The position numbers and the translations under genes were made by a program. Of a DNA stretch of 64,000 nucleotides, positions 362 through 48,600 are shown piece after piece (the stretch's first letter is position 1; every line of letters begins with the position of its first letter). The stretch is from Sumerlaeia bacterium (GTDB taxonomy: Bacteria; Sumerlaeota; Sumerlaeia; SLMS01; JAHLLQ01): the NCBI GenBank assembly GCA_040219255.1, contig JAVJSW010000068.1, forward strand, positions 96,001 through 160,000, in the 5' to 3' direction. Below the pieces are notes generated by a model. That model saw only the letters and a list, made by a program, of their open reading frames with translations, made no database searches and was not told the origin of the DNA.

Positions 362-1666
362 ATGACCGTTCGCAGCGCCCATAGGAGCCACCTCCACGAA
401 TACGCCTACGACGGCTTTGGCCGGCGGGCCGAGAAGACCGTGGACTCGGGCGGCGCGAACGAGGAGCACACGCTCTTCCTCTATGACGGCCACCACGTCA
501 TCGAAGAGCGCGACGGCGCCACGGGCAGTCTGCTCGCCAGCTACGTCCACGGCCTCGGCATCGACAACGTGCTGACGATGCAGCGCGATGTGGATGGCAA
601 CGGCACGGCGGAGGACTACTTCTACGTGCAGGACGACATGGGCAGTCCGGTGCTCCTGGTGGACGCTGCGGGGGCCATCGTCGAACGCTATGACTACGTC
701 GATTACGGCCGGGCCATCGTGATGAACCCGGGCGGGGTCGAGACGGGCACCGAGTCGCAGTTCGGCAACCCGTACCTCTTCGTCGGCCGGCGGTGGGACG
801 GCGAACTGGGCATGTACTGGAACCGCACGCGTCATCTCCATCCGCTGCTGGGCCGCTTCACGACGCGCGATCCGCTGGGGATTTGGGGGGACGCGTCGGC
901 CTGGGGGAATGGGTACACCTACGCGGGGAATAATCCGTGGACGTATTTTGATCCGTTCGGATTGGAGAAGGAGGAGGTGGATAAGAGTAGGGGGCTGCAT
1001 TGGGATGAGCCATTTAATGACGCTATGGAAAGACTTCGAGAGCACTCTACTTACTATGGCAGTATTATTGAGCACTTGGAAAACAGTGAAAACAAGCATT
1101 CCATCCACAGTCGTGGGAGACGGCGGGGGCTATTCAATAAACCAAATGACGACATAGGAATTCATGTGCATGGCGAGGGTGGAGGTGACGGAAGTGGGAC
1201 ATCTTCGCAGATATTCATACCTAAAAAGTACTTGGAGGGTTTGTCTGAAGATGAGCTAGCACTTGTCTTGGGAAATGAGTTGTACCATGCCTTTGAAGCA
1301 GACCTTGGGGTGTTGACAGAGTCCACCTTGTCCAACCGAGTGGACATTATTGATAAGGGAAGATCTAAGTACGGCGGTGCAACTGGTACTAGGGGTGGTC
1401 ATAAGAATGAGACTGGAAACGTTTATCATTGGGGTGAGTTTAGATCGGATATAGCAGAGCAGGTGGTAAGAAGGGATCTGAAGATTGATAAAGAACTGCT
1501 GCAAAAGCCGTTTATTTTCCCAACATATCCCCATTACACAAGAGAGCAAAGGGCTCTCACCAACGTATGGGACGATGACAGATCTCAGCTTGCGACCGTT
1601 ACAAACGATCCGGCGCCAAATATCGATTCGCTGGCGTCCGTTGACCCCAATATCAAAGAGGATTAA
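362..1666 (+). CDS. Orphan Rhs core C-terminus plus C-terminal toxin domain
   Basis: YD repeats (YAYDGFGRR, YDYVDYG), Rhs core motifs NPYLFVGRRWD, GRFTTRDPLG and NPWTYFDPFGL; abrupt drop in GC right after DPFGL (~964). Confidence 0.9.
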   Translation: MTVRSAHRSHLHEYAYDGFGRRAEKTVDSGGANEEHTLFLYDGHHVIEERDGATGSLLASYVHGLGIDNVLTMQRDVDGNGTAEDYFYVQDDMGSPVLLVDAAGAIVERYDYVDYGRAIVMNPGGVETGTESQFGNPYLFVGRRWDGELGMYWNRTRHLHPLLGRFTTRDPLGIWGDASAWGNGYTYAGNNPWTYFDPFGLEKEEVDKSRGLHWDEPFNDAMERLREHSTYYGSIIEHLENSENKHSIHSRGRRRGLFNKPNDDIGIHVHGEGGGDGSGTSSQIFIPKKYLEGLSEDELALVLGNELYHAFEADLGVLTESTLSNRVDIIDKGRSKYGGATGTRGGHKNETGNVYHWGEFRSDIAEQVVRRDLKIDKELLQKPFIFPTYPHYTREQRALTNVWDDDRSQLATVTNDPAPNIDSLASVDPNIKED

Positions 1667-1670
1667 ATAA

Positions 1671-2246
1671 ATGTTGACAAAGCGCAATGAGAGCACTCTA
1701 AACTTTGGGTGGTTGAATTGGTCTAAGCTACAGGTGATTCTTGTCGCTGCGGGAGCAGCCGTCCTTATTTCTTGTGAGGCTCGTCGCGATTATCAACTTG
1801 TGAATGTTGGAGAATACAATCCATATGTAAGCAACAGAGTTGAAACGGATCGCATGGCAGTAGATCGGCTCGGCTTGGGGGAGACGCTGGACAAGATTGA
1901 TCTAAACAAGAAGTATTTGTACGTCTTCGAAAACTATGGCTATGGTTGGTCTTTCTCGGGCAAGGTGTCTCTTGAAAGCCTTGGTTTTGAACTTGGCCAG
2001 AGGGAGGAATTCTTGATTGAATTGAGAAATGATTCTGTTTTGATTGCAAGTGATACGCCTTCTGATTACGTTGATATGTACGTTGCCGTGGCTGTGTTTG
2101 GGGATGACTACCTAGTTGTAAATTGGCAGTCACCTTGTAGCATGCTCGATGAGTCCGCGAAATATGCGCACGACAGCATGAGATACAGCTTTCCTGTTAA
2201 GATACTGGAGCTTCTCAACAATAATTTGCGTGCAGACTGTGACTAG
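1671..2246 (+). CDS. Putative immunity lipoprotein 1 for the Rhs toxin
   Basis: Starts 4 nt after toxin stop, AT-rich, lipobox-like LISC after a hydrophobic stretch. Confidence 0.65.
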   Translation: MLTKRNESTLNFGWLNWSKLQVILVAAGAAVLISCEARRDYQLVNVGEYNPYVSNRVETDRMAVDRLGLGETLDKIDLNKKYLYVFENYGYGWSFSGKVSLESLGFELGQREEFLIELRNDSVLIASDTPSDYVDMYVAVAVFGDDYLVVNWQSPCSMLDESAKYAHDSMRYSFPVKILELLNNNLRADCD

Positions 2247-2368
2247 CTATGGGCCGAGACTTATTGCGAGATTCTCAAGTTCTTCTAAATGGAAGTGGCT
2301 ACGAATGACAAAACATTTTCTATTCGCACTGTTAATCGGAACGGCGGCCGACCATGTCATCGCCGCCG

Positions 2369-2464
2369 ACTTCCACTACCTCCTGGAAGACCACGCCGAC
2401 CCCTCCGCTCCCGTCATCGAGCGGCGGGGGCGGGGGACGGCAAGCGGTGAGGTGTTGCATCCGG
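2369..2464 (+). repeat. 96-bp direct repeat, copy 1
   Basis: ACTTCCACTACCTCCTGGAAGACC...GCATCCGG matches 3300-3395 with 3 mismatches. Confidence 0.95.
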
Positions 2465-2553
2465 TCGAGAGGGATCGCCAAGCCAGAATAAGACGCACTA
2501 TTCGCGGCTTCACGAGCCACTTTACAATCCCTTGCCTGCGGAGTAAATCAACA

Positions 2554-3141
2554 ATGCCAACCTTTCGTTTCTTAGCCTGCACTTTGGCAATCACACTATA
2601 CCTTTTGGGATGTGCCGCTCCTAATCAAGTGCGACTTGTGAGGATTGGTCCATACAACCTGGGGTTCGACAAACGGGTGGAGGAATTGCAATTAAGTGAT
2701 TTTGAGAAAGAGTTCCTGAACGAGAACTCTGATAGAGAATATGAAAAATCAAATCATGTAGCTGTCTATCAAAGAATTTCTGGAAACATTATCTACTCAG
2801 GGACCATAAATTTTAAAGAGCTTCGAATGACCGAGGAATATCTTCGAGAACAACTTGAGGCAGTGCGCGACGAGGCGGTCTACTCTGAGCCAGATGAAAG
2901 CCAGTGGAAGAACCAGCATCTATATATTGCCATTTTCAAAAAACGGGTCAAAGGCGAGATATATGTCTTGATTTGGCATGAGCCGTGCAAGTTGTTATTA
3001 GGAGAAGTAAGTTACGTTCATTGGACCATGGATGTGAGTCGATCGCAATGGCTTCTTGAAGATCTGGACAAAATAATTCCCGTCATGTGTCCCAGTGACC
3101 ATGTAGATCCCGAGGATGGTCGTGATGCGAAAGTCAAATAA
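2554..3141 (+). CDS. Putative immunity lipoprotein 2 (paralog of 1671-2246)
   Basis: ATG 2554 with GGAG upstream; signal peptide and lipobox LLGC; shares GxYN..RVE, SG and WxxPCxxL..YxHxxM motifs with the upstream lipoprotein. Confidence 0.65.
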   Translation: MPTFRFLACTLAITLYLLGCAAPNQVRLVRIGPYNLGFDKRVEELQLSDFEKEFLNENSDREYEKSNHVAVYQRISGNIIYSGTINFKELRMTEEYLREQLEAVRDEAVYSEPDESQWKNQHLYIAIFKKRVKGEIYVLIWHEPCKLLLGEVSYVHWTMDVSRSQWLLEDLDKIIPVMCPSDHVDPEDGRDAKVK

Positions 3142-3299
3142 AATCTCGACGAGAGTATATAATAGAAAATGTCTTGGTCTGAACGTGATTGCCTCCGATA
3201 TGTTGGCAATTTCGGTCCATTTGCGGCTGTATGCGCAAGGTTTCCAATGGACGATATTTTTTTTCATACTTGTCGTATGCTCATCACTTCAAGCCGTCA

Positions 3300-3395
3300 A
3301 CTTCCACTACCTCCTGGAAGACCACGCCGACCCCTCCGCTCCCGTGATCGAGCGGCGGGGGCGGGGGACGGCGAGCGGTGAGGTCTTGCATCCGG
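3300..3395 (+). repeat. 96-bp direct repeat, copy 2
   Basis: Near-identical to 2369-2464. Confidence 0.95.
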
Positions 3396-3691
3396 CGGGT
3401 TTGATTCTGCCGGCGGACCGGCTGTTTCGCGAGTTCGTGCTGGATGCGGAGACGCTTCAGGTCGGGTACGCCGACTTTGTCTCGCCAGCCGTCGGCCTCA
3501 GCATGGAGCTGCCGACGTTCGATCTGGGTCCGGACCCGTGGGGCGACGCCGATGGCGACGGCCTCGGGGGCATGGGCGAGTACATCGTGGGCACCGATCC
3601 TTCGCAGTGGGATACCGACGGAGAGGGTGTGTCCGATGCGGCCGAGGTGCGCCAAGGCACGAACCCGACGGATGGCATGGGCAACCTTTAG
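3300..3691 (+). pseudogene. Remnant of a large surface protein with DxDxDG calcium-binding repeats
   Basis: GC-rich frame beginning at the repeat with no credible start; DADGDGLG..EY.VGTDP..WDTDGEGVSDAAE..GTNP repeat; ends abruptly. Confidence 0.55.
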
Positions 3692-3711
3692 GGAGAGAAA
3701 GCGCCGCCGGA

Positions 3712-3734
3712 CATGGGCGAGACGCCCAGGCTAC
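3712..3734 (-). repeat. REP-like palindrome
   Basis: Reverse complement GTAGCCTGGGCGTCTCGCCCATG: GTAG foot plus GC hairpin; related copies at 28509, 61996, 62118. Confidence 0.7.
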
Positions 3735-3739
3735 ACGGA

Positions 3740-5509
3740 TTAGTCAAAATCCAGATCGTCAAAGCCCGAGTCGAACACGTCCGAGTCGCTTTCCTGGCGT
3801 TTGAGGACGATCAGGGTGAAGTCGTCGAACTGGTCGGCTTCGCCGCGGTGGCGGACGCAGGACTGGTAGATCGCGTTGCGGATTTCCTCGGCGCGTTTTT
3901 GCCGGTTTTCCCGCAGAATGGTGAAGAGCCGTTCCTCGCCAAAGATTTCGCCCTGGGTGTTTTGAATGTCCGTGACGCCGTCGGTCGAGAGCAGCAGCAC
4001 GCCGCCTTTGGGGAAATCGATGGTTTCCGCTTCGTAGTCCACTTCCGCGCTGATTCCCAGGAACAGGCCGCCCTTGTCCAGGAACGTCATCGTCCCATCG
4101 GGCTTGAGCAGCACCGGATGGCAATGGCCGGCGTTGACGTACTGTAATTGGTCGTCTTCGGGTTTCAGGATCGTGTACACCATCGTGACATACATATCGT
4201 TCGTCACGTCGCGATAGACCATGCGGTTCATGCGGGCGACGGCTTCGACGATGTTGGTGCTGGGGCGTTCGCTTTCGCCCTGGAGGTAACTGCGCGTGGT
4301 CGCCGTCAGGATGGCCGCCGGGACGCCCTTGCCCGACACGTCGGCCACGGCGAAGACGAAGCGGTCGTCGGGCAGTTCGAGGAAGTCGTAGTAATCGCCG
4401 CCCACCTGCTTGGCCGGCAGCGACATCGCCGACACATCGTATCCGGGCACGTTGGGGTACACCTTGGGCAGCAGGTTCATCTGGATCGTGCGGGCGATTT
4501 CCATCTCGCGGGCCAGTTTGTACTGCTCGACCAGTTGGCTGTGCAGCCGCGCGTTGATGATACCGAGCGCCGCCTGGTTCGTCAGACCCGTCAGCAGCTC
4601 CAGCTCCTCGCGGCTGTAGGGCATCATCCGCGTCCGGGTGTCCACATAGACCACGCCGAGCGCCTCGTCCTGATACACGATGGGGGCCACCATGGCGGTG
4701 CGGATGCGATTGAGGATGATGGACTCGCTGCTGGCGAAGCGCTGGTCCTGGGCCGCGTCCGACACCAGCATCGACACCCGGTCGGCCATACACTTATCCA
4801 CGATGGAGCTGGACAGCTTGACTTCCTGATCTTCGCCATCGCGGGCCCGTACCACGCGCGGTTCCAGCTCGTTGGTTTCCGGATTCTTGATGAGCAGATA
4901 GGAGATGTCCGGCTTCAGGATTTCCTGAATCAGCTCGACCACCTTCTCCAACACCTGGTCCAGGTCCAGGAGCGAGCGCATCGCCTCGCTGATCTGGTAG
5001 AGGATTTCCAGGCGCTTGGACGCGTCTTTGAGCGCCATGCCGTGATTGGTGTCGATATTGACGGTCTGGGCGGGTCGGACGCCGGCGCGCACTTCGCCGC
5101 GGGTCGATCCCCACTGGTTTTCGTCCACCACCTTGTAGCTTTGGTTCGGCCGGCCCACGGGCGGCGTGCCCATGAAGGTCTGGCCCGAGGACACGCTGTC
5201 CATCGCGTCGGCGATGCTGTCCTCTTCGAAGAGCAGCGTGGTGTCGCCGATCTGCAAAATGTCGCCGCTGCGCAACTGAGTGGGGCCGCCGATGGTCGCG
5301 CCGTTGAGCTGCGAGCCGTTCTTGCTGCCCAGATCCCGCATGAAATAGTGCTTGTCTTCCTCGTACACCTCGGCGTGGTTGCGGCTCATGCGCCGGTCCA
5401 CAACTTGCAGTTCGTTGTTTACGCTTCGGCCCACGCTGATGCGCCGGCCAGCTCCGAGCTGGATCACGCGGCCTTGTTGCTCGCCGGATTGGATGATCAG
5501 TTTGGGCAT
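3740..5509 (-). CDS. FHA-GAF-SpoIIE (PP2C/RsbU-like) serine phosphatase
   Basis: FHA (VGRS..SRNHA..DLGSKNG), GAF, then GGDYYD, ADVSGKG, NAGH, TDG, DD motifs. Confidence 0.92.
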   Translation of the reverse strand: MPKLIIQSGEQQGRVIQLGAGRRISVGRSVNNELQVVDRRMSRNHAEVYEEDKHYFMRDLGSKNGSQLNGATIGGPTQLRSGDILQIGDTTLLFEEDSIADAMDSVSSGQTFMGTPPVGRPNQSYKVVDENQWGSTRGEVRAGVRPAQTVNIDTNHGMALKDASKRLEILYQISEAMRSLLDLDQVLEKVVELIQEILKPDISYLLIKNPETNELEPRVVRARDGEDQEVKLSSSIVDKCMADRVSMLVSDAAQDQRFASSESIILNRIRTAMVAPIVYQDEALGVVYVDTRTRMMPYSREELELLTGLTNQAALGIINARLHSQLVEQYKLAREMEIARTIQMNLLPKVYPNVPGYDVSAMSLPAKQVGGDYYDFLELPDDRFVFAVADVSGKGVPAAILTATTRSYLQGESERPSTNIVEAVARMNRMVYRDVTNDMYVTMVYTILKPEDDQLQYVNAGHCHPVLLKPDGTMTFLDKGGLFLGISAEVDYEAETIDFPKGGVLLLSTDGVTDIQNTQGEIFGEERLFTILRENRQKRAEEIRNAIYQSCVRHRGEADQFDDFTLIVLKRQESDSDVFDSGFDDLDFD

Positions 5510-12983: not shown

Positions 12984-13234
12984 TATCTTTTCTAATTGCG
13001 TCACACCCTCCCCTCTCCCTACCTTCCACCGTCCCTGGGGCACGACTCTTGATCGGCCCTAGGTAGGATTTTACCTACCTCGGTGGAGGATTTCCCTCGG
13101 AACGTGGCAAAGGTGCATCCTTCAACCCCCCGCTCCGTCCCCGGACGGTGTACTTGGGAAGATCAAAGAAAGGCTTGGAAGGGGAAGACAGATGATATCG
13201 CTTCGAATCCAAATCCGCGAAGGCGGTGAATCTC

Positions 13235-13921
13235 ATGGCTAGAACGGCACGCGTCATTGCGGTGCGGTATCCGCACCACGTGTTGCAGCGCGGGAATTTT
13301 GGCGCGCCGGTGTTCATGAATGACGAAGATCGTTCGACTTATCTTGAGCGCCTGCGGACTTGTGCCAAGGAAAACAAACTCGAGGTGCTGGCTTATTGCC
13401 TCATGCAGAACCACATCCACATCGTGGCTGTGCCCAAGCAGGAGGAAAGCTTGGCGATGGCCTTGCGCCGCACCCACAGCTTCTACAGCCGCTACCTCAA
13501 CTCCCGGCTCGACCGCGTGGGGCACGTCTGGCAGAACCGCTTCTACTCCTGTCCCGTCGACAAAGACAAGGTCTGGCCGCTCGTCAAGTACGTCGAGCAG
13601 AACCCAGTCCGCGCCGGACTCGTCAAGGACCCGTGGGAGTACCGCTGGAGCAGCGCTCCGGCCCACTGCGGGCTTACCGACGATCCGCTCCTCGCCAAGA
13701 ACTGGCCTCCCAAGGGAGCCGTCGAGGACTGGAAGGCGTTCTTGAAGACCGACTTGCCCGAGGACGAAGTCGAAGCGGTACGCCGCTCGACCATCCGGGG
13801 TCAGGTGTGGGGCGGCAAAGCGTTCATCGAACGCCTCGAGAAGAAACTGGAACGTCCCGTGGGGCCTCGCCGCATCGGCCGGCCGCCCAAAGCGGACAAG
13901 AGCAAGCGCCCGAGTCCTTGA
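13235..13921 (+). mobile_element. Y1 HUH transposase, REP-associated (RAYT)/IS200-like
   Basis: PHHVLQRGN, YCLMQNHIH (HUH), YVEQNPVRAG, YRWSS; upstream hairpin AGGTAGG/CCTACCT at 13061-13080. Confidence 0.88.
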
Positions 13922-15968: not shown

Positions 15969-17075
15969 TCACAACGCGATTTCGCGAGCCCGGAATGTGG
16001 AACTCTGGGGCGGATCGGGCGGATCCGCGGGAGGTTTCCCCGGGTCGGCGGATGTGGTCTTCGCGCCGTCTCGCGCCGGGAAGGACGTGTCCGCCGGCAA
16101 CGTGGCGCAAAGTTCGGTCCGGTTTCCCGTCAGCGCCACCGAAACCGAACCCGCCGGGCCCTCCAGAGACTTGCGATACCCCAGCAGTTCCAGCAATCTG
16201 TCGATCTCGGCGAGCATTTCCGCCGCGCTCTGAAACCGCGCCCCCGGGTCCTTGGCGAGAGCCTTCAGGAGAAAGGCCTCGATTTCCTCAGGCAGGTCCG
16301 GAGCCAGACTGCGCGGCTTCGGTGGCCTGGCGTGCAGGTGCATCTGAGCCGTCTCGAAACCCGAGTCGCTCATGAACGGCGGCCGGCCGCACAGAAGCTG
16401 GAAAATCAAAACCCCCAGCGAATACAAATCCGCCCGGTGATCGACGGCGGGATCGGCCAGCACAACCTCTGGAGCCATGTACAGAGGGGTGCCCACGCGG
16501 CTGCATCCGGCCGGATTGAGTCCCATCTCGCCCATGCGGAAAGCCACGCCGAAGTCCATGATCTTCAGCGTTCCGCGCCGGTTGACCATCAGGTTGGCGG
16601 GCTTGATGTCGCGGTGCACGACGCCCTCCGAGTGGACGTGGCGCAGACCCCGGGCAACCTGCCGGGCGAGTCCGAGGCTCTGGACCCAGGTAGGCAGACC
16701 CGTTTCCTGGAGCAAGTTGCGAAGGCTGTCTCCCTCGACGAACTCGAAGACGAGAGCCTGATTGCCCCAGATGTCCCAAGCCATCGCGTGAACCTGCAAA
16801 ACGTTTCCGTGAGGCGACAGCGAAGCCAGCAGCTTACCTTCGAAGGCCAATTGCTTCAGCCGCTCCTTACGCGTTTGCTCGTCAAAAAAGCCGGCCGGAA
16901 TCGTTTTGATCGCCACCGGTCTGTCCAGGCATTGCTGAGTGGCCCGGTAGACCACCCCCATCGATCCCCGGCCGATTTCCAGAAAGTCCTGAAAACCGGG
17001 GAGAGCCAACGGGTAAGCTGGCTTTCCAGAGGGCTTCGGTGCGGACCTTTGGGTGAGTCTCGCGGACTGGGACAT
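15969..17075 (-). CDS. Hanks-type Ser/Thr protein kinase (cytoplasmic)
   Basis: IGRGSMGVVY, VAIK, HRDIKPAN, DFG, GTPLYMAPE, DLYSLG. Confidence 0.93.
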   Translation of the reverse strand: MSQSARLTQRSAPKPSGKPAYPLALPGFQDFLEIGRGSMGVVYRATQQCLDRPVAIKTIPAGFFDEQTRKERLKQLAFEGKLLASLSPHGNVLQVHAMAWDIWGNQALVFEFVEGDSLRNLLQETGLPTWVQSLGLARQVARGLRHVHSEGVVHRDIKPANLMVNRRGTLKIMDFGVAFRMGEMGLNPAGCSRVGTPLYMAPEVVLADPAVDHRADLYSLGVLIFQLLCGRPPFMSDSGFETAQMHLHARPPKPRSLAPDLPEEIEAFLLKALAKDPGARFQSAAEMLAEIDRLLELLGYRKSLEGPAGSVSVALTGNRTELCATLPADTSFPARDGAKTTSADPGKPPADPPDPPQSSTFRAREIAL

Positions 17076-17291
17076 GGATCAAACTCATTGCAATGGAATT
17101 GTTGCATGATGGCGAATAGCTCGCCTCAAGACGAGAATACTGGACAAAGCACGGCGTATGCCCGAAAGTTTTTTTCGATCAAAACGTTTCCACTTCCGTT
17201 TTCCGCCGGAGCGGATCAGGCAGGGGTTGACCTTCTGTGTGATTCCTTGGGATTGCAGCGCCTATCCCGGCTCTAAGGGCTTTCCCGCCGC

Positions 17292-20200
17292 ATGGTTTCC
17301 GTTCCCTCCCCGCCTCCCTTCCTGCCCTGCCTCGTCCGGTCCGATTACGCGCCGGGCGGACAAAGCCTGGCGCGATTGGAGGACATTTTCCGCCGTGCGG
17401 CGCAATTGGGCCTCACCACTCTGGCGCTGGCCGATCCCATGTCCCTGGCCCAGGTGCCGGACGCCGACGCGGCGGCCCGCCGGTGGGGCATCACGCCGAT
17501 TTTTGGGCTCGAAATCCGGGTCACTCCCTTTATGGACCGCGAGGGTGGCGAGGACGCTTCCCCCGCCTGGCTTTACGCCGCCGACACGGCCGGTTGGCAA
17601 CGGCTCGTCGCCCTGCTGAACGACGCCCGGGGCCGCGCCACCCAGGGCAAACCGCCGGTGCTTTCCTGGGCCGATGTGTTCCGCGAGCCCCGGGGATTGG
17701 TGCTTCTCCTCGGAGGCGAGCGGGGCGAATTGACACAGGCCGCCTGTGAGAAGCGTGACAAACACGTCGAAGCGTTGATCGCCACCGCCCTGCGCGCCTT
17801 CGGCAAGCGCCGCCTCGGCCTCGCCCTGCCGCGGCCTGTGGACGCCGGGAGCGTGCGGGCCGCGCGGGCTCTGTGGACCCTGGCCCAGAACCGCGAGCTG
17901 CTGGCCATCGCGGCTCCGCCGGTGCGGTGCGCCCTGCCGGAAGACGACCTCGCCTGGAACGCCATCCGCCGTGGCCGGCGCGGCGAGCAGCCGACCACGC
18001 TCAGCGATCTCGCCCGGCCCCTGCGCGAGCGCGAGCACCTGCCGTCCCTGCGCGAAGCCGCCGAACTCTACGCCGATTTCCCCGGCGCCGTCGAGAATTC
18101 CGGCAAGCTCTTCACCCTCTGCCGCCCCATCGCGCCGGACGGTGGCGCTCCCCGCTTCGCCCGCCGCTTTCCCCGCCTTGTCTTCGAGCGCGGCGTGGAT
18201 GCCGACTCCTGGGTCTGGAACACGGTGTTCGAGCGCGCCGCCGAGCGCTACGGCGACCTGCCGGCGCGCTGGCGCGAGCGCCTCGACGAGGAGTTCCGCG
18301 CCTTTGCCGAAGCCAGCCTGATGGAAGGTCTCGCCTGTATGGCGCGCCTCGCTCAGGCCTTCGACCAGCGCGAAATCCCCCGCGGCCCCGGCGCCGGCTT
18401 TCTAACCGACAGCCTGGTGGCCGCGCTGCTGGGCATTACCCGGGTCGATCCGCTCCGCCACGATTTACCCTTCGCCCTGCCCGCCGACGTGGCGCAGCGC
18501 CCCTTCCGCCTGGATGTGCCTTCCGGGGCGCTTGTGGAGGCCGAGCGCATCCTGCGGGGCCTTTTTCCCGGGTTTCACTGCGAGGTCGGCCGCTGGATGC
18601 GCTGGACGCCCGCGCTCGCGCTCGATCGGCTCCGCCATGCGCTCAAACTCGATTCGCCAAGGATGCCATCGCCAGAGGACCTGCGCACCGCCCGCGAGTC
18701 CGACGCCATCGCCCGCGAGGAATCCGCCGGCGACCCCGATCTCTCCCTCGGCCTCGACGATCCCCGGGGCATGGCGTGGCTGCTGGCGCGGCTCGAGGAC
18801 CGGCCCCGCCTCCTCGAACCGGTGCGCGGGCTCTACGCCCTGACGGCGGAGAGCGCCGTCTCGGCGGTGCCGCTGGCGGCGGGAACGCTGGCCGAGTGGG
18901 ACCGCGACGCCATGATGCGCGTGGGCGCCGGGCTGATCGGCGTACAGAGCGACGATCTGCTGGACCTGGCGGAGGAAGGGGCGGAATGGCTGCGGCGCAC
19001 GGGCCGGCGCTCTTTCCGCGCCGAGGCCACCGCCCTCGATGACCCGGAAGCCTTCGCCATCGTGCGCGAGGGCGCCACCTCGGGCATCGGGCCGCTCGAT
19101 TCGCCGGTGCTCAAGCGCACGCTGCGGGCTCTCCAGCCCACCGATTTCCCCAGTCTGCAACGCGCCATCGACCGAGACAGCGCCGCGCCGGACCGCGAGC
19201 CCGTCGCTTTCGACCGCCTGCGCCTGGGGCTGGAATGCGCGGCGGTGCGGGGGCGGGACGGAGCCTGCTTCTACGCGGCGGCGCTGTCCCAGGCTCAGGG
19301 CGACCCGCGGCGGGTGGCGATGCTGCTGGCCGAGGCGCGCCGCGAGGGCCTGGAAATCGCCCCGCCGGACGTCAATCTTTCCCAATGGCGCTGGTCGCCC
19401 GAAGGCCGCGGCCTGCGCGTGGGGCTGATGGTGGTCAAGGGCTTCCCCCGCAGCGCCTATCGCGAAGTGGCCGACATCCGCCGCTCCATGCTCTTCGCCG
19501 ACACGGCGGATCTTCTGCGGCGGACGAACCCCGCGGCGGTGCGGCGGCTCCATATCGAAGCCCTGGCCCGGGCGGGGGCCCTGGACGGCATCGCGCCGGG
19601 GCGGGCGGCGATCCTGAGTCTCCTGCCGCGTCTCTTCGATCACCTCAGGCCCGAGGAAACCCGCGATACCCAGGCCATGAGCTTTTTCGGCCAGGACCCG
19701 CAATGGCTCCTGGAGCAGCAGGACCCGGCCCTGATCGCCGCCCAGGCCTCCGGCGCCCCGGCGGACCCGCCCGACTCCTGGGAATCGCTGGCGGAGCTGG
19801 ACTTCGCCGCCACCGGTGTGGTGTTTTCCCTGACCCCCGAGGAGCGATACACCGACTTCCTGAAAGTCGCCCAGGTCAAGACGTCCGCCTCCCTCGACAT
19901 GCGCGACCGCGATCAGGTCGTCTCGCTTCTCGGCCACATCGTCGGTGCCGAACCCGACCCGCAAAGCGACACCGGCCGCTGGCTGGCCGATTGCGGCGGC
20001 TTTTTCGCCGAACTGGACGAGCACCGGACCGAATTCGCCCGCGACAGCCGCAACGCCCTCGAACCCGTTCTGGTCACCGGTGAGTTGCGCCGTGAAGGCT
20101 TCTCCTGGATCGTCCGGGCCCGCCGCATGGAGCGCCTCTCGGAAGCCGATCGACAAGCCCGCCGCGCCGACCGCCTGGAGGTGGACATCGGCCGGCTGGA

Positions 20201-20477
20201 TCAGAAGAATCTGAAACGCCTGATGGAGGTCCTGAAAGCCTTTCCCGGCAATGTACCGGTCATGCTGAACGAGGCCCCGGCGGAGAAATCACGCCTCCTC
20301 AACCGCCTCGCCGCCCGGCGCGTCATGCCCTGCCCGTTGCTCGAGGTGCGGCTCAACATGGTGCTCAACAATCGCGGCTGGCGGCTCTACGTCGACGGCG
20401 TGGCGCGGCCGCTGCGTGTCGTCCTCAACCACGATTCGAGCGACACCACGGAGCGCCGGGTGGCGAGTTCGCTGTGA
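17292..20477 (+). CDS. DnaE (Pol III alpha) paralog, predicted catalytically inactive
   Basis: PHP-palm-HhH-OB-CTD order recognisable (SLVAALLGITRVDPL, PPDVNLS, GLMVVKG, ALARAGALD) but catalytic motifs substituted. Confidence 0.85.
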   Translation: MVSVPSPPPFLPCLVRSDYAPGGQSLARLEDIFRRAAQLGLTTLALADPMSLAQVPDADAAARRWGITPIFGLEIRVTPFMDREGGEDASPAWLYAADTAGWQRLVALLNDARGRATQGKPPVLSWADVFREPRGLVLLLGGERGELTQAACEKRDKHVEALIATALRAFGKRRLGLALPRPVDAGSVRAARALWTLAQNRELLAIAAPPVRCALPEDDLAWNAIRRGRRGEQPTTLSDLARPLREREHLPSLREAAELYADFPGAVENSGKLFTLCRPIAPDGGAPRFARRFPRLVFERGVDADSWVWNTVFERAAERYGDLPARWRERLDEEFRAFAEASLMEGLACMARLAQAFDQREIPRGPGAGFLTDSLVAALLGITRVDPLRHDLPFALPADVAQRPFRLDVPSGALVEAERILRGLFPGFHCEVGRWMRWTPALALDRLRHALKLDSPRMPSPEDLRTARESDAIAREESAGDPDLSLGLDDPRGMAWLLARLEDRPRLLEPVRGLYALTAESAVSAVPLAAGTLAEWDRDAMMRVGAGLIGVQSDDLLDLAEEGAEWLRRTGRRSFRAEATALDDPEAFAIVREGATSGIGPLDSPVLKRTLRALQPTDFPSLQRAIDRDSAAPDREPVAFDRLRLGLECAAVRGRDGACFYAAALSQAQGDPRRVAMLLAEARREGLEIAPPDVNLSQWRWSPEGRGLRVGLMVVKGFPRSAYREVADIRRSMLFADTADLLRRTNPAAVRRLHIEALARAGALDGIAPGRAAILSLLPRLFDHLRPEETRDTQAMSFFGQDPQWLLEQQDPALIAAQASGAPADPPDSWESLAELDFAATGVVFSLTPEERYTDFLKVAQVKTSASLDMRDRDQVVSLLGHIVGAEPDPQSDTGRWLADCGGFFAELDEHRTEFARDSRNALEPVLVTGELRREGFSWIVRARRMERLSEADRQARRADRLEVDIGRLDQKNLKRLMEVLKAFPGNVPVMLNEAPAEKSRLLNRLAARRVMPCPLLEVRLNMVLNNRGWRLYVDGVARPLRVVLNHDSSDTTERRVASSL

Positions 20478-45623: not shown

Positions 45624-48600
45624 ATGACCGCACTGCAGGAAGCCCCCACCATCGAGAAGCCCAACACGGTGCTTATTCTCGGGTCCTCCGCCCTCAAAAT
45701 CGGCGAGGCGGGCGAGTTCGATTATTCGGGAAGCCAGGCCATCAAGGCTCTGCGCGAAGAGGGCATTCGAACGATCGTCATCAACCCGAACATCGCCACC
45801 ACGCAGACCAGCGAAGGGCTGGCGGACGAGATTTATTTCCTGCCGGTGACGCCGTATTTCGCCGAGAAGGTGATCGCCAAGGAACGGCCCGACGGCATTC
45901 TGCTGTCCTGTGGCGGCCAGACGGCGCTGAACTGCGGCGTGGCGCTCTACGAGGCGGGGGTTCTGGAGAAGTACAACGTGCGGGTGCTGGGCACTCCGGT
46001 GCCGGTGATCCAGGACACGGAAGATCGCGACCTGTTCTCGCGCAAGCTGGCGGAAATCGGCGTTCCCACCCCCCGCAGCCACGCCGCCACGGGCACCCAG
46101 CAGGCGGTCGCCATCGCCGAGGAGTTGGGTTATCCGGTGATGGTGCGCATCGCCTACGCGCTCGGTGGCCTGGGCAGCGGCATTTGCCGCGACGAAGCTC
46201 AGCTCCGCGAGCGTGCCGACAAGGCCTTCAAGCACACCAAGCAAATCCTGGTGGAGGAGTACCTGACGGGCTGGAAGGAAATCGAGTACGAGGTCGTGCG
46301 CGACCGCCATGGCAACGGCATCACGGTCTGTAACATGGAGAACTTCGACCCGCTGGGTATCCACACCGGCGAGTCTATCGTGGTGGCGCCGAGCCAGACG
46401 CTCTCCAACCAGGACTACCATCACCTGCGCGAGGTGGCTCTGAAGACGATCAACCACCTGGGCATCGTGGGCGAGTGCAACATCCAGTACGCCGTGGACC
46501 CGCACAGCGACGAGTTCCGCGTGATCGAGGTCAACGCGCGCCTGTCGCGTTCGTCGGCGCTGGCCAGCAAAGCCACGGGCTATCCGCTGGCATTCGTATC
46601 GACCAAGCTGGCTCTTGGCTACGGCCTGTTCGAGCTGCCGAATTCGATCACCAAGACGACCGGGGCGTTTTTCGAACCGGCGCTGGATTACTGCGTGGTG
46701 AAGGTGCCGCGGTGGGACCTGAAGAAGTTCCGCAACGTGAGCCGGCGCCTGGGTTCGGGCATGAAGTCCGTGGGCGAAGTGATGGCTATCGGCCGGCGCT
46801 TCGAGGAAGCCTTGCAGAAGGCGCTGCGGATGCTCGACATCGGCGCCATGGGCCTGACCGGTAACGATCAGGAATTCAAGGACCTGGACGAGGAGCTGCG
46901 CTATCCCACGGACCGCCGCGTATTCGCCATCGCGGCCGCCATGGAGCAGGGCTACACGATCGAGCAACTGCACGACATCACGCACATCGACCGCTGGTTC
47001 CTGGCGAAAATCGCGGCGGTGCTCAAGCTCGATCGGCAGCTCGCCGCGGCGGGCAAGACGATCCCGGAGCCGCTGCTGCTGGAGGCCAAGAAGAGCGGTT
47101 TCAGCGACGAGCAGATCGGCGCCACCACCGGCCAGAGCGCCGAGGACGTGCGCCTTCAGCGCGAACGCCTTCACCTGCACCCCATCGTGCGCCAGATCGA
47201 TACGCTGGCCGGCGAATATCCCGCCCAGACCAACTACCTCTACCTGACCTACAACGGGATCGCCGACGATGTGGAGTTCACCGAATTCAACACCGTCCTG
47301 ATCCTCGGCTCCGGCGCCTACCGCATCGGGTGCTCCGTCGAGTTCGACTGGTGCTGCGTCACCACGGGCAAGACGATGCAGGAACTGGGTTATTCGACGG
47401 CGATGCTGAACTGTAACCCGGAAACGGTTTCGACGGATTACGATGAATTCGACCGGTTGTTCTTCGACGAAATCACGGCGGAAAGTGTCCTGGAAGTCGT
47501 GCGCAAGATCAACCCGCTGGGCGTCGTGGTCAGCATGGGCGGCCAGGTGCCGAACACGCTGGCTCCGAAACTGCACAAGGCTGGTGTGACCCTGCTGGGC
47601 ACGGCGGCGGAGAACATCGACCGGGCGGAAGACCGGCACAAGTTCAGCTCGCTCCTCGACCGCATTGGCGTGGACCAGCCGGCCTGGGCCGAGTTGCGGA
47701 CGACGAGCGAGGCGCTCGAGTTCGCCAACCGCGTCGGCTACCCGGTGCTGGTGCGGCCCAGCTATGTGCTCTCCGGCGCGGCGATGGCCGTGGCGACAGG
47801 CGACGCCGAGCTGACCAAGTTCCTCTCCGCCGCGGAAGATGTCAGCAAAGACCATCCGGTGGTGATCTCGAAGTTTCTGGAGAACGCCAAGGAGATCGAA
47901 TTCGACGCGGTGGCGCGCAAGGGCGAAATCCTGTGCTACGCCATCAGCGAGCACGTGGAAAACGCCGGCGTCCACAGCGGCGACGCGACCCTGGTGCTGC
48001 CGCCGCAGCGCACATACCTGGAGACGATCCGCCAGATCCGCGCGGCGGCGGAGGAAATCGCCAAGGAGCTGGACATCAACGGCCCCTTCAACATCCAGTT
48101 CATCGCCAAAAACAATTCGGTGAAGGTGATCGAGTGCAACCTGCGGGCGTCGCGTTCCTTCCCGTTCGTCAGCAAAATTCTGCGGACGAATCTGGCGGAG
48201 CTGGCGGCCAAAGTTCTCGTCGGCCGGCCCGTCGAGAAAGTGGAGCGGAGCCACTTCGACATCGACTTCGTGGGCGTCAAGGCGCCGCAATTCAGCTTCG
48301 CCCGCCTCGAAGGGGCGGACCCGACGCTGGGCGTGGAAATGGCCTCGACGGGCGAGGTCGCCTGCCTGGGCAAGGACTTCTACGAAGCGTTCCTGAAGGC
48401 CCTCATTTCCGTCGGCTATAAGATGCCGGTGAAGCGCGTTCTGCTTTCGACGGGGCCGAAGGAAACGAAGGCGGAAATGCTCGAAGCGCTGCGGATGATG
48501 GCCGACCAGGGCATCGAGTTCTACGCCACCTGGGGCACGGCGGACTTCCTGGAGGAGCACGGGCTCAAGGCGAAGCGGCTCCACTGGCCGCTGACCAAGC

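Follow-up and report, generated by a model that had tools for sequence, protein, structure and literature searches.

A DnaE-type polymerase paralog without catalytic aspartates and fingers in genomes across the phylum Sumerlaeota

We analysed a 64,000-nucleotide stretch of DNA (hereafter the window) from a Sumerlaeia bacterium (assembly GCA_040219255.1, contig JAVJSW010000068.1, positions 96,001 to 160,000 of the forward strand), and in particular one gene within it, whose product, P0001, is a relative of DnaE, the alpha subunit of bacterial DNA polymerase III (Pol III). A first reading of the bare sequence (the original prediction) had described this gene as an uninterrupted DnaE-like open reading frame (ORF) of 1061 amino acids (aa) with host-like codon use. 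Both statements hold: the frame was confirmed from the ORF list and its translation, and its codon-usage distance of 0.059 lies at the 12th percentile of 1112 long ORFs. The gene and the parts of its product are arranged as follows (pLDDT, predicted local distance difference test, is the confidence score of the structural model described below).

17292..20477, forward strand: gene for the DnaE-like pseudo-polymerase P0001, 1061 aa, ATG start, stop codon included, no internal stop
17292..18146, forward strand: PHP-like domain, residues 1-285 (Pfam PHP on residues 24-179, above the cut-off; one of nine metal ligands kept)
18147..18491, forward strand: N-terminal palm segment with the GPGAGF loop, residues 286-400, the most conserved part in the window's clade
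18492..18971, forward strand: rest of the palm and the thumb, residues 401-560 (catalytic Asp positions occupied by gap/R/G)
18972..19271, forward strand: remnant of the fingers, residues 561-660 (about 110 residues gone after approximately residue 634)
19272..19658, forward strand: helix-hairpin-helix (HhH; beta-binding) domain, residues 661-789 (Pfam HHH_6 on residues 686-773, E 1e-17, above the cut-off)
19671..19688, forward strand: candidate clamp-binding-type motif QAMSFF, residues 794-799 (loop 790-798 with pLDDT below 50)
19872..20141, forward strand: OB-fold domain, residues 861-950 (model strands at 876-948, pLDDT about 90)
20142..20417, forward strand: DnaE1-type C-terminal domain, residues 951-1042, holding LKAFPGNVPV at 981-990

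The same genome encodes a canonical DnaE elsewhere, as the original prediction had expected: this protein (P0033; contig C1 of genome G000, 367-3981) is 1204 aa long and has every motif. The genome contains only two matches to PF07733, with no third, and a single match to a Y-family polymerase. The GC content at third codon positions (GC3) is 0.857 in the P0001 gene and 0.871 in the canonical dnaE. The overall GC content of the P0001 gene, 0.712, lies at the 99th percentile of the long ORFs, and its source is codon positions 1 and 2 (GC1 0.76 and GC2 0.52, versus 0.62 and 0.38 in the canonical dnaE).

With P0033 as the reference, all the motif substitutions listed in the original prediction were reproduced in an alignment of the two proteins. 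The PHP motifs HLHVHSEFS and SNDAHY of P0033 read PCLVRSDYA and APPVRC in P0001, the glycine-rich loop GPGRGSAAGS reads GPGAGFLTDS, and the region of the palm Asp pair (FERF..MPDIDVDF) has become FALP..RPFRLDV. Further along, SIHAAG is replaced by EPVRGL, and the region of the third Asp, LLKMDFLG, by AGLIGVQS. The three catalytic Asp positions thus correspond to a gap, an arginine and a glycine, and an acidic residue aligns with none of them. The reported absence of the fingers segment was also borne out, since the block YRPGP..YQEQ..RKAMGKK..FNKSH is represented in P0001 by a gap of about 110 residues, with which a profile alignment (hhalign) agrees.

These losses are common to the relatives of P0001 that we collected, referred to below as the family. 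The Asp triad is found in 0 of 84 family rows (some of which are identical sequences from two sources), and the fingers motifs YRPGP, YQEQ, RKAMGKK and FNKSH are a gap in the 37 genome-derived and the 47 library rows alike. The Asp pair is present in all 19 canonical rows examined, and the four canonical rows that were printed read DDD. Judged from its sequence, P0001 should be incapable of two-metal nucleotidyl transfer of the kind performed by DnaE.

Profile searches delimit the same missing parts. The Pfam model DNA_pol3_alpha matches P0001 over only positions 3-91 of its 260 (residues 308-395 of the protein), and the finger model reaches 16.5 bits, short of its cut-off of 22, over only positions 15-67 of 166. 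None of the 14 NCBIfam models that match P0001 (DnaE and PolC models and one PHP phosphatase) attains its curated cut-off, the best being PRK05673 with 209.7 bits against 1002; the DnaE2 model, PRK05672, scores 131.5 bits against 939. A HMMER comparison with the sequence of the E. coli alpha structure yielded three blocks (P0001 residues 6-395 with 2-389, 570-622 with 579-631, and 658-1014 with 780-1139), none of which covers the catalytic strands of the palm or the greater part of the fingers.

An AlphaFold2 model of P0001, built from a 39-row family alignment, has a mean pLDDT of 89.1 and a predicted template modelling score (pTM) of 0.85, and its low confidence is limited to residues 1-4, 790-798 and 1043-1061. 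The top Foldseek match of this model is the Pol III alpha subunit of Thermus aquaticus (2hpi, E 1e-48), followed by the alpha subunits of Mycobacterium tuberculosis and E. coli and then by PolC. VIA-align superimposes the model on E. coli alpha (2hnh) with Z 34.6 and a root mean square deviation of 5.6 over 749 residues; model residues 5-787 cover residues 1-910 of E. coli alpha, the model being about 125 residues shorter in this part. With T. aquaticus alpha the alignment extends to model residue 983 (T. aquaticus residue 1164). Consistent figures were obtained at the profile level, where hhalign matched the family to P0033 over 1002 columns (probability 100, E 5e-77), as far as residue 1151 of the 1204 in the canonical protein. 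The DnaE1 fold and domain order (PHP, palm, thumb, fingers, HhH, OB and C-terminal domain) are found in P0001, with the fingers present as a remnant, and on the strength of the model we are confident that P0001 keeps the full-length Pol III alpha fold.

The retention of an HhH domain, a clamp-binding-like motif and an OB-like region, which the original prediction had also proposed, is supported by Pfam, by conservation and by the AlphaFold2 model. Conservation was compared between 39 family rows and 31 rows of canonical DnaE, counting the positions conserved in both. The HhH domain has 30 such positions out of 129, among them D693, N695, S697, R709, G711, R730, F735, R744, D765 and R771, and the N-terminal palm has 27 of 115, the GxGxG loop glycines being among them; the rest of the palm and the thumb have only 8 of 160. 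Within the window's clade (19 near-clade rows, mean pairwise identity over nine segments), identity is highest in the N-terminal palm (0.60), followed by the HhH domain (0.46), and it is lowest in the OB domain (0.27) and the linker (0.25). The N-terminal palm, with its RGVDADS, RWRERLxxEF and GPGAGF sequences, is therefore the most conserved part of P0001, even though the catalytic site has gone.

The motif QAMSFF lies where it had been placed, at residues 794-799 (19671-19688), and its counterpart in the alignment with E. coli alpha is the region that holds the internal clamp motif. Rows of the window's clade follow the pattern [D/Q]-[P/E]-L-x-F-F-[G/D], F798 being present in all 19 and F799 in 18. 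The pattern in the other clades is x-x-[T/S]-L-F-D; of their 20 rows, 16 carry L at the position of F798 and 18 carry F at that of F799. The family motif fits the clamp-binding type, the consensus of which we take to be QL[SD]LF. Downstream of this motif, residues 859-950 match the OB folds of the MCM N-terminal domain in VIA-align (Z about 10).

The proposal of a tau-binding-like C-terminus was upheld in part. A folded DnaE1-type domain does exist at the place indicated; such a domain is missing from three aligned DnaE2 sequences, which end before it, and is present in P0001. The functional label is weakened, however, since only 2 of the 92 positions of this domain are shared with canonical DnaE, while 14 are conserved in the family alone, and a tau-contacting surface is therefore not visibly preserved.

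The PHP domain of P0001 retains its fold (VIA-align Z 30.7 against the E. coli alpha PHP domain, 4gx8), while its metal site has been dismantled. The nine ligand columns read LRQPEPGPR in P0001 versus HHDHEHCDH in P0033, so that only the glutamate is kept. As a correction, the lone histidine of the close orthologs (FVHLGxRSD) is neither of the HxH ligands. The whole of the window's clade keeps at most four of the nine ligands. Across the family, 12 of 76 rows keep at least seven and 59 of 76 keep at most four, and the strict set HHDHEHCDH occurs in one (L024) of the 63 rows in which all nine columns are filled. In a tree from which the PHP columns had been left out, at least seven changes of the high-ligand state are needed. 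A working PHP site was therefore probably present in the family ancestor and was lost repeatedly while the protein itself was kept, and for this reason PHP chemistry is not what is selected family-wide.

A six-frame search of 75 species genomes of the window's phylum (Candidatus Sumerlaeota in the source names) revealed matches to P0001 in 74. Among the matches listed, a paralog of the P0001 type stands beside a canonical dnaE in 70 of the 75 genomes: 56 with a single row covering more than 750 query residues (open frames of approximately 1040-1140 aa, a few of them cut by a contig end), 13 with fragmented or contig-cut copies, and the window's own genome. The canonical dnaE frames of the paralog-carrying genomes, again among the matches listed, are approximately 1150-1240 aa long. 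The five genomes without a paralog-type match are all 66-87% complete, and therefore all 43 high-quality genomes of the phylum carry the paralog. The expected orthologs with the same losses were indeed found: the Asp pair, the third Asp and the entire fingers block are missing from all 36 paralog genes fetched from relatives.

Full-length orthologs with 21-42% identity occur in genomes spanning the families of the phylum. A word-indexed search retrieved seven full-length relatives with 36-41% identity, and those bearing names were assigned to Candidatus Sumerlaeota or Sumerlaeia. When a 39-member profile was run against 1.84 billion representative proteins, single-stretch full-length matches came at the top, followed by ordinary DnaE proteins matching in two stretches. 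Of the 66 new proteins examined from this search (P0034-P0099), 19 possess both the Asp pair and the fingers, and the other 47 possess neither. One highly divergent library member maps back into the window's own taxonomic family with 75% identity, and the commonest known phylum of a protein atlas cluster of 109 members is Candidatus Sumerlaeota. From the source names and the divergent member that maps back, we infer that the family is restricted to the phylum Sumerlaeota.

Selection on the paralog was assessed by the Nei-Gojobori method in three within-genus pairs; the window copy has no same-genus relative. The ratio of nonsynonymous to synonymous substitution rates (dN/dS) was 0.42, 0.09 and 0.10 for the paralog versus 0.28, 0.06 and 0.10 for the canonical dnaE of the same genome pairs, ratios that are rough because dS is near saturation. 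The corresponding amino-acid identities were 60, 73 and 84% versus 74, 88 and 90%, and the proportion of nonsynonymous differences (pN) was well below that of synonymous ones (pS) in all three paralog pairs. The paralog family is clearly constrained, that is, under purifying selection. What the original prediction had named as marks of a decaying gene, no orthologs and a dN/dS near 1, is the opposite of what we found, namely a phylum-wide family with dN/dS of 0.09-0.42. The terminal branch of P0001 is long (0.94), and its ratio to the canonical branch is like that of its relatives. We also observed several disrupted copies: in genome G020 (contig C14) the paralog is split over two adjacent frames of 454 and 511 aa, and the matches in G026, G010 and G067 contain one in-frame stop each. 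These could reflect either local pseudogenisation or assembly errors.

In phylogenetic trees the family is monophyletic with a support of 100 (FastTree with 87 rows and IQ-TREE with 40 rows) and its long branch falls outside the DnaE1 and DnaE2 sequences sampled; the phylum's canonical DnaE is nested in DnaE1. Constraining the family and the phylum's canonical DnaE to group together costs 41.7 log-likelihood units and is not rejected by the approximately unbiased test (p-AU 0.09). The family groups with DnaE2 with a support of 94.9, which in an unrooted tree is not strong evidence. The presence of the C-terminal domain favours a DnaE1-like ancestor.

The immediate surroundings of the gene include the following two features.

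15969-17075, reverse strand: Ser/Thr protein kinase (Pfam Pkinase, E 3e-50), divergent from the P0001 gene and separated from it by a 216-nucleotide (nt) spacer
17227..17255, forward strand: promoter-like element, TTGACC (17227-17232), 17 nt, GGATTG (17250-17255), starting 65 nt 5' of the ATG

Besides the kinase, the neighbours encode an M14 peptidase, a thioredoxin-like protein, a radical SAM protein and a protein of the endonuclease/exonuclease/phosphatase family; neither imuA nor imuB is among them, in agreement with the original prediction. Relatives do not conserve the pairing of the kinase with the paralog. At 13226-13921 of the window, on the forward strand, lies an ORF of 231 aa whose product has a Y1 transposase domain of the IS200-like type (Pfam E 4.7e-13). 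No conserved neighbour was found in 13 loci compared with flanks of approximately 7 kb: the paralog alone is common to all 13, and the best unrelated cluster is present in three. In 37 loci, one downstream ORF is common to seven, all from a single taxonomic family.

Upstream of the gene, a TTGAC[AC] hexamer precedes the chosen start in all 17 loci of the window's clade, at a distance of 61-94 nt in 16 of them, and a GGATGC-like hexamer often follows the upstream word after 17 nt. The exact word TCTTGACA is present in 12 of the 17 loci, compared with a maximum of 6 in shuffles, and it is not common genome-wide (37 found versus about 68 expected). A search for a regulon in five relatives gave 8 hits for the upstream word TCTTGACAYKGT versus 7 control hits, which is the chance level. 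Other exact matches of the upstream word in the relatives, with counts likewise at chance level, lie 5' of ftsZ-like and murA-like ORFs. We infer that the conserved element is probably the paralog's own promoter and nothing more. The lack of a conserved neighbour and the conserved promoter-like element support the view that the paralog forms its own transcription unit.

Candidate partners are encoded in the same genome, which has one canonical beta clamp, DnaN (P0179), and one DnaX (P0181) of 636-652 aa. A DnaX match is present in 71 of the 75 phylum genomes, and a DnaX frame was obtained from 20 of 29 relatives' loci examined. The DnaX (tau) gene, on contig C23 (L071, 1414-3372, forward strand), encodes a C-terminal mini-domain (..YPEFREACE.VE..G..P..FNG..) that is kept in most of the 20 frames. 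A second DnaN (P0180; 409 aa, 30% identical to the canonical one) is encoded outside the window, on the reverse strand of contig C78 at approximately 47337-48563 (L117), at the contig end and next to genes for SSB, MazG, a dCTP deaminase-like protein and ThyX. Given this company it is most likely phage-borne and unrelated to the paralog; it is part of a phage-like module found in none of the 74 other phylum genomes, and we rejected it as a partner of P0001.

The claim that the window encodes an intact DnaE paralog that is not a conventional polymerase has thus been upheld, with the loss of the Asp triad and fingers extending to all family members examined and the family remaining under constraint. 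As to its role, we lean, with moderate confidence, towards a non-catalytic, clamp-tethered DNA-binding adaptor descended from a DnaE-type Pol III alpha subunit. The protein retains the polymerase shell, made up of the PHP-like domain, the palm/thumb scaffold, the duplex-binding HhH domain, the OB domain and the C-terminal domain. Gone are the carboxylates at all three catalytic positions, the Arg and Ser that bind the triphosphate, the nucleotide-holding part of the fingers and, in the window's lineage, the PHP metal site. Contact with the beta sliding clamp would be made by the conserved [D/Q]-x-L-x-F-F loop, while the HhH and OB domains would sit on duplex or primer-template DNA. The protein would work by occupancy or recruitment, as an adaptor, a placeholder or a competitor at clamp-bound DNA ends.

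Several observations weigh against this proposal. A pure clamp adaptor has no obvious need of the N-terminal palm, the most conserved segment in the window's clade, which could mark a ligand or partner site, and the partner of the C-terminal domain may, judging by its residues, be other than tau. The view that the palm cleft is free of carboxylates relies on alignments, and most family members, though not the window copy, have a Glu at the second catalytic Asp position. The paralog changes at roughly double the rate of the canonical dnaE, a sign of weaker constraint, and its compositional drift towards Ala, Arg, Gly and Pro is consistent with a constraint weaker than that on the replicase. Finally, dS was 0.8-2.1 in the pairs compared, near saturation, which makes the dN/dS ratios rough.

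The alternative closest to a clamp-tethered adaptor, with which it overlaps, places the key contact on tau: a dead alpha would fill an alpha-binding arm of the tau clamp loader by means of its C-terminal domain, and in this way set the number of active polymerases or bring a factor to the fork. That domain is kept, is well folded and aligns with the C-terminal region of E. coli alpha, while the aligned DnaE2 proteins lack it. The near-universal DnaX matches (71/75), the mini-domain at the end of most of the 20 DnaX frames and the co-occurrence of the paralog with canonical DnaE in the genome pairs examined also fit a tau-held subunit. With 14 family-only conserved positions in the domain against 2 of 92 shared with canonical DnaE, we nevertheless regard it as unlikely. 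We consider it still less probable that the protein is an enzyme other than a polymerase, either a PHP 3'-5' exonuclease or phosphoesterase acting at clamp-bound ends, or a bearer of some new activity or ligand site in the palm loop. The minority of 12/76 rows with 7-9 PHP ligands, including the strict set of L024, would suit the former, as would the parallel of PolX proteins that combine a dead polymerase site with a preserved PHP exonuclease, mentioned in the consulted part of PMC12926913; the latter would explain why the N-terminal palm is the best conserved segment in the window's clade. P0001 itself, however, keeps only one of the nine ligands and its clade at most four, the PHP state has changed at least seven times, and the Arg and Ser of the loop have given way in this clade to Ala and a hydrophobic residue.

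Two further explanations appear very improbable to us. A decaying pseudogene or annotation artefact that merely happens to be still open would account for the evolutionary rate, faster than that of canonical dnaE, for the abundance of residues with GC-rich codons, and for the gene in two frames in G020 and the three matches with one in-frame stop. It is hard to reconcile with 1061 open codons, full-length orthologs throughout the phylum, pN far below pS in three of three pairs, a confident AlphaFold2 model and motif conservation that differs from domain to domain. Hardly more credible is an active polymerase whose active site has been re-arranged in a manner unseen by alignments. The Glu at the second Asp position of most members, Asp408 of P0001 in the same strand and the retained glycine-rich loop could be read in its favour; yet only scattered rows are acidic at both of the first two Asp positions, the triad occurs in none, and the fingers segment is deleted in every member examined. 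The remainder of the probability we assign to an explanation that we have not thought of.

More tentatively, the adaptor proposal can be extended to the whole family, which may be a fifth, non-catalytic branch of the C-family polymerases that predates the radiation of the phylum and has been kept in essentially all of its members as a standing clamp-bound (possibly tau-bound) component of replication or repair. If so, it would correspond, within the bacterial C family, to ImuB or to the inactive module of Pol epsilon, and the repeated erosion of the PHP site would represent a transition from enzyme to scaffold that is still under way. Dead scaffold polymerases are known in the Y (ImuB), B (Pol epsilon) and X (PolX) families, and the P0001 family would be the first in the C family. 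A dead DnaE conserved across a phylum would be a new type of partner for the replisome or the clamp, and would serve as an experiment of nature that tells which Pol III alpha surfaces are important beyond catalysis (HhH domain, clamp motif, N-terminal palm). P0001 appears to be a soluble, single-chain protein, and its predicted partners, DnaN and tau, are encoded in the same genome, so that the idea is directly testable in vitro.

The original prediction knew of no characterised dead C-family polymerase, and our full-text searches agree with this: they yielded no description of an inactive C-family paralog, and no paper linking Sumerlaeota with DNA polymerase III. In the consulted portions of two wide-ranging surveys of these bacterial polymerases, from 2026 and 2014, the C-family groups are PolC, DnaE1, DnaE2 and DnaE3, all active, and the same portions discuss inactive PHP domains and inactive members of the Y and X families without mentioning an inactive C-family polymerase (PMC12926913; PMC3919608). 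According to the consulted portion of the 2026 survey, complete reference genomes were used, so that proteins of the present type may have been dropped or left unsampled (PMC12926913). From the same portion come the two parallels relied on here, namely ImuB, a catalytically inactive Y-family polymerase that serves as a clamp-binding adaptor, and the cited PolX proteins with an inactivated polymerase site and a preserved PHP exonuclease (PMC12926913).

Among known systems, P0001 has most in common with DnaE1 (2hnh; 2hpi/3e0d/4iqj; 7pu7), with which it shares the fold, the domain order, the signature residues of the HhH domain and the site of the clamp-type motif. Unlike DnaE1, it has no Asp triad, its GRGS loop is altered, about 110 finger residues and the PHP ligands are lost, and it belongs to a separate long-branch clade. 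It resembles DnaE2 (ImuC) in being a second, presumably non-essential DnaE beside a sole DnaE1 replicase and in its degenerate PHP site; DnaE2, in contrast, still has the Asp triad and the fingers but no C-terminal domain, and the P0001 gene has no imuA or imuB neighbour. A dnaE2 cassette was accordingly ruled out, given the lost palm and fingers, the C-terminal domain, the unrelated neighbours and a PRK05672 score far below the cut-off.

The other likenesses are to inactive members of different polymerase families. P0001 shares with ImuB a polymerase fold devoid of catalytic residues and a clamp-binding-type motif (predicted in P0001), whereas ImuB stems from an unrelated polymerase family and works in a three-gene mutasome, the P0001 gene having no linked partner gene. 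Dead PolX has lost its polymerase site and kept its PHP domain, a state comparable to that of the family minority with 7-9 ligands; it is, however, a member of the X family and not of the C family, and the window's clade has lost the PHP site as well. The inactivated module of eukaryotic Pol epsilon and the inactivated B-family polymerases of archaea are non-catalytic parts of the replication machinery. These modules belong to the B family, and no equivalent of their part in helicase assembly is known from bacteria; what P0001 has in common with them is the retention of an inactive polymerase paralog.

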